Of a stretch of DNA of 64,000 nucleotides, positions 39,841-42,621 are shown in pieces (the first letter of the stretch is position 1; each line of letters begins with the position of its first letter). The stretch is taken from NCBI GenBank assembly GCA_036253055.1, contig GCA_036253055.1_4124.1; one strand, given 5' to 3'. Under the pieces are notes generated by a model, which made no database searches, was not told where the DNA came from, and worked only from the letters and a program-made list of their open reading frames with translations. Origin of the DNA: a phage. The translations under genes were made by a program, and so were the position numbers.

Positions 39841-40212
39841 TTATGACATACGCTTATTATGAATGGAATTATGAATGGATTTTAAATAATTATATAATTT
39901 TATCAATCCACTACCAGTAGCTACAAACAGTAGTGCTGTTGGTATCATACATCCAAACATGGTTATTAATTCATGTATTTCCATACCATCACTATTTGGT
40001 CCCACATCAAATATAACAACCAAAACAACACCTAAAATGCTTAGACAATAATATCCCATAAAGACCATAAAAGTGATATATCCGGCACTTGATTTAATAT
40101 TACATAACATATTATACACTGGATTAATACAGAAGAAGTATAATAACCATACCAGTGTTCCAGTACTGAACATAATAATTGAAATAATGGAAAATATCTC
40201 ACGGTAACTCAT
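39841..40212 (-). CDS. small multi-pass membrane protein, paralog family C
   Basis: 123 aa; hydrophobic; SD GAGGAAA. Confidence 0.5.
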   Translation of the reverse strand: MSYREIFSIISIIMFSTGTLVWLLYFFCINPVYNMLCNIKSSAGYITFMVFMGYYCLSILGVVLVVIFDVGPNSDGMEIHELITMFGCMIPTALLFVATGSGLIKLYNYLKSIHNSIHNKRMS

Positions 40213-40213
40213 A

Positions 40214-40576
40214 TTATTTCCTCATACCCAAACGTTGGTGGATTTCAGAGATCTTTATATACAATAGTACCACAAGGTGCAGTACTAAACAACATATAAT
40301 TACGGCTAATACCAATGAACATATCATAAGACCGAAGGTTATTGTATTCAAAGAGGATGTGAACAGTCCAATTATTAATACAATAAAACCAAAATTGAAT
40401 ACTGTACCCAACACAGTATATGCTGGACTATATCTCTTTTGGATTACATCATATATATTTGATAATGGTCGCTTATGGAAGTACTTCCCAATGCACACGA
40501 ATGCATTCAGTGAGAAGATAAATGTATACGCCATTACTAGTAATTGACCAACGAAAGATAATTCTATCCCGTTCAT
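40214..40576 (-). CDS. small multi-pass membrane protein, paralog family C
   Basis: Start moved to ATG 40574-40576, 1 nt after the upstream stop. Confidence 0.45.
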   Translation of the reverse strand: MNGIELSFVGQLLVMAYTFIFSLNAFVCIGKYFHKRPLSNIYDVIQKRYSPAYTVLGTVFNFGFIVLIIGLFTSSLNTITFGLMICSLVLAVIICCLVLHLVVLLYIKISEIHQRLGMRK

Positions 40577-40577
40577 A

Positions 40578-40946
40578 CTAACCTCGTTTACGTTTTTTAA
40601 TTGTACTGTGCATCTTTTCGAAATAGGGAACCAAAACATATTGAACAGTTTGCCAGATAACCATTAGATTATGCACTGCACCACCAAGGATACCAAACAC
40701 TAGAACAATAATTGCCATAATAGGATCACCGTCTACCATACCCCATTTAAAGATATGTAAAATCCAAGCAATGACTAGACAAAATAAACTAAGCCAATAC
40801 GTAATGAAAAATCCGGCTTGTAATTCATAATCATCAGCAATTTCATCGTATACCGTTTCTAAAAATGATACACAAAAGAATTTACCAATTATAACCACAG
40901 TACTAATAAACAGCATAGCAGTTAAGATAATAAGAGCAATTTCCAT
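40578..40946 (-). CDS. small multi-pass membrane protein, paralog family C
   Basis: 122 aa; TAATG stop-start overlap. Confidence 0.5.
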   Translation of the reverse strand: MEIALIILTAMLFISTVVIIGKFFCVSFLETVYDEIADDYELQAGFFITYWLSLFCLVIAWILHIFKWGMVDGDPIMAIIVLVFGILGGAVHNLMVIWQTVQYVLVPYFEKMHSTIKKRKRG

Positions 40947-41260
40947 TACATCCCTCGTTTACGCTTTTGATTGCGTCTAAATTCTGTTAGTCCACGGCTA
41001 ATCGGCGGCATCAGACTACATAAAAAAGTAACAGTTGTTGGTAGTAACATCAAGTCAATCATTGCAGTGTTATCTGGTGGATCAAAAACCAAAAAATACA
41101 CACAAGAAACACTAATAATGGTTGAACCGATAAAAGGAATACAAAATTCTTTTATCTGTTTTTCAACATAATCAAACATCTTGAGTACAAATAAAAATCC
41201 AACCCAACACATAATGAAATAGAATGAATACAACGTGTAAATCAATGTTACTATATCCAT
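40946..41260 (-). CDS. small multi-pass membrane protein, paralog family C
   Basis: 104 aa; C-terminal RRNQKRKRG. Confidence 0.5.
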   Translation of the reverse strand: MDIVTLIYTLYSFYFIMCWVGFLFVLKMFDYVEKQIKEFCIPFIGSTIISVSCVYFLVFDPPDNTAMIDLMLLPTTVTFLCSLMPPISRGLTEFRRNQKRKRGM

Positions 41261-41598
41261 TAGTACCTCGCATCAGGAACTTTAGCACGTAACTTATGAA
41301 CGACTGGGAACAACAACAAACTTACATATGCAATAGTTGAACCCCAATAGAATACTAATACAATTGGTTCACCATTAGAACGGAAACCTCTACTAATCAT
41401 TGAGTAGTGAATAATAGGCATAATCATCGCCATACCAAACCATGCGTGTAATTTTAATTGCAGCATGTTATCAGCGATGAATACTGAAATTGGTCGTTTA
41501 AAGAACCACATCAGAAAGTAGAATCCAGCACTAATAATATAGTACATGGTACTAACTTTCATATACCACGGCAGTAAATCAATAAAGTACTCCATCAT
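41260..41598 (-). CDS. small multi-pass membrane protein, paralog family C
   Basis: 112 aa; C-terminal LRAKVPDARY. Confidence 0.5.
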   Translation of the reverse strand: MMEYFIDLLPWYMKVSTMYYIISAGFYFLMWFFKRPISVFIADNMLQLKLHAWFGMAMIMPIIHYSMISRGFRSNGEPIVLVFYWGSTIAYVSLLLFPVVHKLRAKVPDARY

Positions 41599-41942
41599 TC
41601 CTCCGGTATCTTATTTCGAAGTTCAATCATAACACAACAAATTTTAATGGTCAATATAAAAGTTAAACATATCATCCCAAGTGTGCCGTAAACTGCGGAA
41701 AAAGCTGGTAGTACCTTTCCTGTGAGTGTTGCTACAATACATGCAATCAATGTTGATGCAAACAACGATTGATTAATGACAGAATTCATAAAATCTTCAC
41801 CATTACGTTTATAGAATTGTCGTTTAAAATACCATCCTAGAAACATAACTACCCAAAATGATACATAAGTTGTTAGAATAATCCCTGCAAGTGAATGTGC
41901 AACTGGACTACTCCTTAAAAACTCAAGATAAGCTTCAAACAT
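41595..41942 (-). CDS. small multi-pass membrane protein, paralog family C
   Basis: 115 aa; C-terminal ELRNKIPEE. Confidence 0.5.
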   Translation of the reverse strand: MFEAYLEFLRSSPVAHSLAGIILTTYVSFWVVMFLGWYFKRQFYKRNGEDFMNSVINQSLFASTLIACIVATLTGKVLPAFSAVYGTLGMICLTFILTIKICCVMIELRNKIPEE

Positions 41943-42280
41943 TAGAAGTCTCCGCGAATTTTATCTCTACCATGAATAATGAGATGGATTAAGTATGCAA
42001 CTAACCAAATGAACAATCCAAAGAATACAATATATTGTGAGATTGAGTTCAAGTGAGGATTAGCACAATAAATTAAGTGTGCCATAAGACCAACAATTGC
42101 AAACAAACCTTGAACAAGTGTGTAAAGAACTAGTGATGAATTCCTCACTGGATACAGTTTAAAAACAATTTTCTTTTTAAAATACCATAGTACTACAACT
42201 AGTGCATGATAAAAGAAAAAACCAAAAAGATAAATCAAAGTAATACTAATCATTGTATCTGATTTAAAAAATTCTAACAT
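41942..42280 (-). CDS. small multi-pass membrane protein, paralog family C
   Basis: Start moved to ATG 42278-42280 (TAATG overlap); near-duplicate of 42280..42621. Confidence 0.5.
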   Translation of the reverse strand: MLEFFKSDTMISITLIYLFGFFFYHALVVVLWYFKKKIVFKLYPVRNSSLVLYTLVQGLFAIVGLMAHLIYCANPHLNSISQYIVFFGLFIWLVAYLIHLIIHGRDKIRGDF

Positions 42281-42621
42281 TAGAATCCCCATTTAAAGTT
42301 ATCACGAGCTTTAATAATAAAGTACATAGTACACACCAATAACCAGACGATTAGTCCTGAAAACACAACATATTGTGTAATGTGTGGTGTGTTATCAATT
42401 TGTAACATGTAAATCACATATGTCATCACACCAAATAAAATAAATCCACCTTGTATAATGCTATATACAACCAAGAATACATTATTATATGAATACAATT
42501 TAAAAACAACTTTCCTTTTAAAATACCAAAGACTAATTACAATTGAATGATAAAACAAGAATACAAACATGTATATCAGTGTGATACCAAGCATTATATT
42601 AGATTCAAAAAACTCACGCAT
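42280..42621 (-). CDS. small multi-pass membrane protein, paralog family C (first of 8)
   Basis: 113 aa; SD GGAGA. Confidence 0.5.
   Translation of the reverse strand: MREFFESNIMLGITLIYMFVFLFYHSIVISLWYFKRKVVFKLYSYNNVFLVVYSIIQGGFILFGVMTYVIYMLQIDNTPHITQYVVFSGLIVWLLVCTMYFIIKARDNFKWGF

Follow-up and report, generated by a model that had tools for sequence, protein, structure and literature searches.

A 64,000-nucleotide (nt) stretch of phage DNA (NCBI GenBank assembly GCA_036253055.1, contig GCA_036253055.1_4124.1; the window) carries two minus-strand arrays of small membrane protein genes, one of eight genes (m1-m8, positions 39841-42621) and one of three (n1-n3, 49380-50415). By profile comparison, the eleven products form one superfamily with two subgroups, A and B, which carry different motifs. 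Small early membrane proteins are already a known kind of phage gene; what is new is a single superfamily with a common topology, recurring motifs, a collinear gene order and a fixed partnership with an ATPase similar to NrdC.10 of phage T4, all within a single clade of jumbo phages. The reading that we favour, with a probability of roughly 40%, is that the members are early, non-virion factors of the host inner membrane, built on a shared scaffold, directed at paralogue-specific targets, and serving host takeover or exclusion.

In sequence, the window matches Escherichia phage 121Q at 99.6-99.9% identity. This phage is a myovirus with a 348.5-kb genome, belongs to the genus Asteriusvirus and is one of the 'Rak2-like' jumbo phages. 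Most jumbo-phage genes have no assigned function, and here eleven 'hypothetical proteins' from at least nine families collapse into one. The family is not described in the RaK2, CBB, phAPEC6 and jumbo-phage comparative papers; the literature searched speaks of paralogues and 'putative membrane proteins' in general terms only, and the genes are deposited as hypothetical proteins. The two arrays, 3.8 kb in total, offer a compact target for experiment. They bear on the conditioning of the host inner membrane, on the choice between exclusion or takeover factors and a complex, and on the role of the NrdC.10 ATPase family. Even if their function proves ordinary, the grouping improves the annotation of about 40 matched genome records of this phage group.

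Homology, distribution and evolution of the array proteins

The main array corresponds to 121Q gp224-232. Gene starts were taken from the annotation of phage G17, and each junction was checked in the sequence. As a first-pass annotation of the window had proposed, eight consecutive minus-strand genes encode proteins of 104-123 amino acids (aa), and they agree with the annotated coding sequences of G17 and 121Q. Four of them belong to subgroup B: m8 (42280-42621, 113 aa), a paralogue of m7 (41942-42280, 112 aa, PHROG 19454), m6 (41595-41942, 115 aa, PHROG 19046) and m5 (41260-41595, 111 aa, or 112 aa if the start is at 41598). They are followed by m4 (40946-41260, 104 aa) and by the subgroup A genes m3 (40578-40946, 122 aa), m2 (40214-40576, 120 aa) and m1 (39841-40212, 123 aa), the last being the final gene of the array; m2 is without a PHROG match and is unannotated in several relatives. 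The second cluster, which had also been proposed, is real and belongs to the same superfamily. Its genes, likewise on the minus strand, are n1 (49380-49724, 114 aa, a weak match to PHROG 19285), n2 (49726-50067, 113 aa, PHROG 19285) and n3 (50077-50415, 112 aa, PHROG 19285), whose product is subgroup B-like.

Pairwise identity among the main-array proteins is 13-25%, except for m7 and m8. This closest pair had been called near-duplicates, a description that 47% protein and 63% DNA identity do not bear out. All-against-all BLASTP gave clear similarity for m7/m8 and n1-n3 only, being too insensitive for the rest, and PHROGs keeps the members in at least nine families (27618, 26405, 33258, 27396, 19046, 19454, 19285, 19792 and 16874), which are orthologue groups of individual members and are mostly labelled 'unknown function' (19792 and 16874, 'membrane protein'). 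Such a picture could also arise if the similarity were purely compositional, with unrelated hydrophobic open reading frames (ORFs) or non-genes lying side by side. Profiles of whole orthogroups (OGs) were therefore compared. They were built with orthologues drawn from vB_Ec-M-J, A4, RaK2, PHA46 and later database matches, and reversed sequences served as the control for composition.

Within subgroup B (m5, m6, m7/m8 and n1-n3), enriched profiles were linked at 90-98% probability (for example, OG5-OG6 at 97% and OG5-OG7 at 90%), and among the window genes m6 had the strongest links to other B-type orthogroups. Subgroup A was held together by OG1-OG3 (92%) and OG2-OG3 (95%). The two subgroups were joined by full-length, collinear alignments: OG3-OGn (80%, 104 columns), OG1-OG7 (70%), OG1-OGn (67%) and OG3-OG7 (55%). 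The link of m4, OG4-OG6, reached 85% but covered only 21 columns. Reversed-sequence controls gave at most 7.5% probability and a score of 20.8, and 20 of the 36 real profile pairs exceeded all of them.

When hidden Markov models (HMMs) were built with one orthogroup left out at a time, the left-out window proteins scored 17.6-34.7 bits, versus 7.5-17 bits for the best unrelated or reversed negatives. Lower scores were obtained for m8 (11.3 bits) and n2 (11.2 bits), both of which are unambiguous relatives (of m7 and n3, respectively). The weakest-linked member, m4, scored 17.6 bits against 10.7 for its best negative. Metagenomic members outside the training sets matched several orthogroup HMMs at once; L015_2648, for instance, scored 19.4 with OG1, 19.0 with OG6 and 16.1 with OG7. 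Since the profile, leave-one-out and metagenomic results all beat the controls, the similarity is best explained by homology and not by composition, and the paralogy claimed in the first-pass annotation holds.

The family HMMs were also run against ORFs of 60 aa or more from all six frames of the whole 121Q genome and of the window. They recovered exactly the eleven proteins, at 56-85 bits; no twelfth member was present among about 940 other ORFs of the 121Q genome, other membrane ORFs included, the best of which reached 10.9 bits. The ratio of nonsynonymous to synonymous substitution rates (dN/dS) was 0.09-0.47 for every member in three genome pairs (the window versus ph0011, vB_Ec-M-J and UE-S1), as predicted for real genes under purifying selection. 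On the profile controls, the leave-one-out HMMs, the genome-wide scan and dN/dS, we reject compositional similarity and regard its probability as next to nil.

When 1.84 billion representative proteins were searched exhaustively with profiles, only 29 clusters were found at E of 1e-3 or less. Members of 28 of these are 56-127 aa long (the exception is a 1617-aa protein), and all named members come from Asteriusvirus-type phages. A word-indexed homologue search with m6 found close orthologues only, and tblastn with m7 found Asteriusvirus records only, with no phi92 match despite the note 'Phi92_gp233' in the ph0011 annotation. As far as these searches reach, the family appears to be confined to Rak2-like jumbo phages.

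Within the clade, the arrays are syntenic and collinear in 121Q, A4, RaK2, PHA46 and a metagenomic relative, and the subtypes follow one another in the order B-type, m4-type, A-type and x-type. A4 has orthologues of m1-m7 in unchanged order. RaK2 ORF309-316 comprise m1-, m3-, m4-, m5- and m7-type genes, two of the m6 type and one extra 'x' type; in PHA46, the main array has four members and there is a single n-type gene, and the metagenomic contig L015 has nine or ten members. Members of the clade thus carry between 4 and about 10 main-array copies (Salmonella SD-series records, in which genes of this region are fragmented, were left out of this judgement). The n-array has one gene in PHA46, three in the window and four in a JNE01-like contig. 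The accessory gene m8 is missing from PBECO4/phAPEC6-type and MJ-type phages and may be present or absent among close relatives.

Gene by gene within one genome pair, the synonymous rate (dS) ranged from 0.04 to 1.55. Against MJ it was 1.55 for m1 and 0.12-0.15 for m5 and m6, and protein identity to MJ was 63% for m1 and at least 90% for m4-m6. Two alleles of the ATPase gene exist in Asteriusvirus: the window protein is 96% identical to that of MJ and 59% identical to those of ph0011 and UE-S1. The allele carried does not track the adjacent array genes, as illustrated by UE-S1 and 121Q, in which m3 and m6 are 98% and 96% identical and the ATPase is 59% identical. Because dS jumps from gene to gene and the ATPase alleles are mixed with near-identical array genes, recombinational mosaicism on the scale of single genes is indicated. 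We conclude that the array is old, with slow birth and death of members and no recent burst. The earlier description of the family as expanded is thus correct on a deep time scale but does not hold for a recent burst, the arrays being collinear and under purifying selection across genera.

A soluble 42-aa ORF is conserved inside the arrays of PHA46 (contig L006, 8781-8909) and L015 (1516-1644). At its C-terminal end it reads ESYLxLLxWYVKVL, which is similar to the m5 N-terminus, EYFIDLLPWYMKVS (window 41554-41595), a likeness that hints that m5 took up part of this small gene, or the reverse. Another metagenomic contig, L013, from a divergent relative, arranges the two components differently: a lone family member (168-530) lies upstream of an NrdC.10-like ATPase gene (1734-2501), with a 346-aa gene between them.

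Predicted topology, motifs and gene junctions

Three 19-residue windows with a mean Kyte-Doolittle hydropathy of at least 1.5 were found in 10 of the 11 proteins. In m5, the first and second transmembrane segments (TM1 and TM2) are rich in aromatic residues and fall below the 1.5 cut-off. Two to four segments had been proposed earlier; the proteins are indeed multi-pass, with a consistent topology, but the number of segments is consistently three, the sub-threshold m5 included. Lysine and arginine are concentrated in loop 1 and in the C-terminal tail, and loop 2 is almost free of them. By the positive-inside rule, all members are predicted to be N-out/C-in, three-pass membrane proteins. The AlphaFold2 models of m1 (pLDDT, the predicted local distance difference test score, of 73; helices 3-26, 30-40, 42-69 and 77-122) and m6 (pLDDT of 78; helices 2-11, 13-38, 42-52, 55-74 and 82-111) have a common architecture, and their helices agree with the three-segment layout.

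Subgroup B proteins carry W/Y-F-F-K-(K/R) after TM1 and end in L-R-x-(K/N)-(I/L)-P-(E/D/N)-R; the C-terminus of m6 is LRNKIPEE. In subgroup A (m1-m3), (G/Y)-(K/F)-(F/Y)-F-(C/H) follows TM1, and a C-terminal I/M-H-x-x-I/L is followed by a K/R-rich tail (KRMS, RLGMRK and KKRKRG). In m3, for example, these elements read GKFFCV and MHSTIKKRKRG. The C-terminus of m4, FRRNQKRKRGM, is without the histidine, and m4 has neither subgroup A element in the form seen in m1-m3. A common C-terminus of the form R-x-N/K-x-P-E/D, which the first-pass annotation ascribed to the proteins, is accordingly found in m5, m6 and n1-n3 and in degenerate form in m7 and m8, but m1-m3 and m4 end otherwise. Mean column identity within orthogroups is 0.46-0.51 for the N-terminus, TM1, loop 1 and C-terminal tail, versus 0.29-0.34 for TM2, loop 2 and TM3.

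The main-array genes were earlier described as overlapping by 1-4 nt. Five junctions do overlap: the stop and start codons share 1 nt in TAATG at four of them and in TGATG at one (ATGA, a 4-nt overlap, if m5 starts one codon earlier). The other two junctions have no overlap and contain a 1-nt spacer (TAGTATG and TAATATG). At every internal junction, a Shine-Dalgarno sequence (GGAG, GAGG or GGGG) lies within the final two to four codons of the gene before it. The array genes are thus linked by translational stop-start coupling. Because ribosome-binding sites are embedded in the gene ends, the final two to four codons, which specify the terminal residues PEE, RG, GD, AR and MR, are probably under a double constraint, that of the protein and that of the ribosome-binding site.

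The idea that the C-terminal similarity is purely a by-product of the embedded ribosome-binding site was considered and rejected. The last gene, m1, has no Shine-Dalgarno sequence in its final codons, yet keeps an IHN-x-I-x-x-KRM motif; the C-terminal motif is also kept in relatives with different junctions. Moreover, the C-terminal motifs reach further upstream than the embedded site.

Operon heads and expression class

The first gene of the main operon (42687-43457, minus strand; 121Q gp223) encodes a 256-aa AAA ATPase (Pfam PF00004, 23.5 bits versus a cut-off of 21.2) that is a clear homologue of T4 NrdC.10: by tblastn, it was 40% identical to NrdC.10 of T4-type phages (E about 7e-43), in 1309 phage records. 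An NrdC.10-like ATPase gene precedes the main array in every relative examined (121Q, MJ, A4, RaK2, PHA46 and L015), at a distance of 1 nt from the first member in L015 and 10 nt in PHA46. This close spacing indicates that the ATPase gene and the array form a conserved, sometimes translationally coupled module.

In T4 itself, the surroundings of nrdC.10 are different. A predicted membrane protein, NrdC.7, is encoded three genes downstream, but it is 133 aa long, has a layout unlike that of the array proteins and scores 4.3 bits with the family HMM; directly after NrdC.10, both T4 and JS10 encode soluble proteins. No significant match to any family HMM was found in the first 80 kb of T4, which include imm, sp and nrdC.1-nrdC.11. 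Relative to the T4 neighbourhood, the array thus appears to be an addition specific to the Rak2-like jumbo phages.

The constancy of this partnership raises the alternative that the paralogues come together in one hetero-oligomeric assembly of the inner membrane. The NrdC.10-like ATPase might load or drive it, and translational coupling would set the stoichiometry. The conserved ATPase-then-array order, with its gaps of 1 and 10 nt, the coupling at every internal junction and the collinear subtype order across the clade would all suit such an assembly, as would the cytoplasmic position of the family-wide motifs, which would be accessible to a docking ATPase. The details of variation speak against it. 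ATPase alleles that are only 59% identical combine freely with near-identical array genes; individual genes have been replaced or have disappeared (in MJ, m1 is at 63% identity, and neither PBECO4 nor MJ has m8); copy number varies between 4 and about 10; the n-array has no ATPase beside it; and T4-type phages keep NrdC.10 with no family member in the T4 region scanned. We therefore consider a complex possible, albeit unlikely. A bolder form, in which the eight (plus three) paralogues make up a membrane machine peculiar to Rak2-like jumbo phages, such as a channel or anchoring platform for their long infection cycle, that is assembled or powered by the co-transcribed ATPase and has no cellular or viral counterpart, seems to us distinctly unlikely. 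Were an ATPase-powered complex to be true, it would provide the first functional context for the widespread, uncharacterised T4 NrdC.10 ATPase family.

Upstream of the ATPase gene, a terminator hairpin overlaps a sigma-70-type promoter (AAAGGGTTGACTTCGGTCAGCCCTTTTTGCTATAAT, 43486-43523, minus strand; -35 element TTGACT at 43515-43510 and -10 element TATAAT at 43491-43486). In this cassette, the -35 element is in the 5' arm of a GC hairpin, the U-run serves as the spacer, and TGnTATAAT follows 18 nt on. Five near-identical copies are present on the minus strand of the window (43486-43523, 45654-45683, 46936-46965, 51431-51460 and 57518-57547), versus 0.13 expected. In MJ, A4, ph0011, UE-S1, RaK2, PHA46 and L015, too, the cassette is found upstream of the ATPase gene, and both stem arms show base changes. 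The main array is, then, a tandem, collinear array behind an NrdC.10-like ATPase gene in an operon with a sigma-70-type promoter. A weaker, promoter-like site between the ATPase gene and m8 (42651-42679, minus strand; TTGACA-17-TACTAT, with only 10 of 12 consensus matches) is kept in MJ and ph0011 and absent where the ATPase gene abuts the first member (PHA46 and L015).

The n-array operon is headed by another copy of the hairpin/promoter cassette, at 51431-51460. Its first gene (50761-51402, minus strand) is named a putative protein kinase in the G17 and 121Q annotations; the product has no Pfam match. At the other end of the main operon, directly past m1, lies a hairpin, ATCCAGTACT-ATTA-AGTACTGGAT (39811-39834), annotated as a terminator in G17. 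It looks like a terminator of antisense (plus-strand) transcription rather than of the array transcript. Because its T-run lies on the plus strand only, transcription of the array may run on into the downstream gene at 39136-39798.

The sigma-70-type promoters point to early expression of both arrays. The T4-type late-promoter octamer TATAAATA occurs at two sites in the 64-kb window (54088 and 54736), versus 12.8 +/- 3.2 expected from shuffled sequences, and at none near either array; this depletion suggests that it is a functional signal avoided elsewhere. In 121Q, the arrays are at the end of a long same-strand gene run that holds most of the short hypothetical ORFs of the genome. In CBB, a related phage, a region made up mostly of short hypothetical ORFs is preceded by a cluster of RpoD-like promoters, and the authors suspect that this region contains early, host-takeover genes (PMC5259590). 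The virion proteome table of phAPEC6 (PMC7247149) lists neither the array orthologues gp012c-017c nor the ATPase gp018c, an absence that, for the array proteins, fits a host-membrane factor.

The expression class also bears on whether the members could be holin- or antiholin-like proteins that time lysis. Class I holins (of the lambda S105 type) are about 100 aa long and have three transmembrane segments, an N-out/C-in topology and a charged C-terminus. Functional holins expressed early would kill the host prematurely. The array proteins, at about 100-125 aa, fit the class I pattern in size, topology and basic C-terminal tail, and the CBB genome paper, which describes the signal-arrest-release (SAR) endolysin of the clade, mentions no holin. 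Unlike class I holins, however, the members have early-type, sigma-70-like promoters with no TATAAATA nearby, are encoded about 138 kb from the endolysin gene (gp532 in 121Q) and come in eleven copies, and none matches the holin family models of Pfam, PHROGs or NCBIfam. A role in lysis timing is therefore very improbable.

Promoter type and neighbours likewise argue against a role of the proteins as inner-membrane anchors or scaffolds on which the phage replicates, assembles its particles or handles its DNA. A precedent for such a role is gp40 of T4, a membrane-associated assembly initiator (T4 annotation), and the members are, as would be expected of anchors, conserved, under purifying selection and stable in position within the clade. 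The surrounding genes (the putative kinase, the AAA ATPase and short hypothetical genes) are nevertheless of an early and not a morphogenetic kind, and PHA46 manages with its four main-array members and one n-type. We strongly doubt this alternative.

Candidate functions and neighbouring genes

The first-pass annotation suggested superinfection exclusion, membrane remodelling or resistance to envelope defences of the host as possible roles. The early-type promoters and the absence from the phAPEC6 virion table speak for roles of this kind, and none of the present results contradicts them. Scans of the members against Pfam, NCBIfam and PADLOC gave nothing above threshold. The only PADLOC hit was that of one member to PycTM (E = 0.029), which does not place the proteins in a defence system, and no solved structure matched any member. 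The nearest functional likeness is to T4 Imm and Sp, which are also small, phage-encoded envelope proteins and which alter the envelope so that the DNA of a superinfecting phage stays out (T4 annotation). With their early-type promoters and predicted membrane location, the arrays could work in a comparable way. The differences are considerable. Imm, 83 aa long, contains two hydrophobic segments, and the N-terminus of Sp resembles a signal peptide, whereas the array proteins have three predicted segments in 104-123 aa; Imm and Sp are encoded by single genes and not by arrays of eight and three. With the family HMM, Imm scores 11.9 bits, within the noise of the negatives, and Sp scores nothing. 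The members thus have neither the two-segment, ~83-aa build of the Imm family nor homology to it in Pfam, PHROG or HMM comparisons.

According to our favoured reading, host RNA polymerase would transcribe both operons early in infection, and the members would be produced together and enter the inner membrane of E. coli rather than the virion. A common scaffold would consist of the parts that are better conserved, namely the N-terminal tail, TM1, the juxtamembrane loop (W/Y-F-F-K/C) and the basic C-terminal tail; of these, the loop and the C-terminal tail would face the cytoplasm. The more divergent hairpin of TM2, periplasmic loop and TM3 would give each paralogue a different membrane target, which could be a protein of the host inner membrane or the machinery by which a competing phage enters. 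Through the long jumbo-phage cycle, the set would then condition the host envelope, in the service of host takeover or exclusion. Separable effectors are favoured over a single assembly because the mosaicism is on the scale of single genes, m8 is dispensable, copy number varies and ATPase alleles recombine freely.

Several observations weigh against this proposal. No member has a homologue with an assigned function in Pfam, NCBIfam, PADLOC or PHROGs, the link of m4 to the rest is weak, and the contrast in conservation between scaffold and hairpin is modest. Early timing is suggested by promoter consensus, and small hydrophobic proteins such as these are easily missed by virion mass spectrometry. 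Seven paralogues kept in order across genera, under purifying selection and all coupled, would fit a complex at least equally well. A simple arms-race form of the proposal is further weakened by the lack of homology to T4 Imm, Sp or exclusion and defence families, and by the stability of the paralogues, each of which, under purifying selection, has an orthologue at the same array position in other genera.

Two further small hydrophobic ORFs of the region, at 47626-47877 (83 aa) and 46159-46353 (64 aa), have no family-HMM match; the early region thus holds other, unrelated small membrane proteins. Genes at 43534-43860 (MKKLMLVMLMCLSTTVNA...) and 51472-51891 (MKKIFLSIILVLFSFNVYA...), each just upstream of a promoter cassette, encode small proteins with signal-peptide-like N-termini, and a homologue of the former adjoins family members on the metagenomic contig L012. 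The gene at 43881-45344 encodes a protein of 487 aa that contains two CapR homology domains (Pfam PF21817, E = 2.6e-23); in some relatives, the same slot upstream of the ATPase gene is occupied by a gene annotated as an HNH endonuclease or exonuclease subunit. Convergent with the main array, the plus strand from about 30000 to 39155 contains RCC1-repeat genes annotated 'DNA condensation', and several of their orthologues are virion proteins in phAPEC6 (gp003-gp010).

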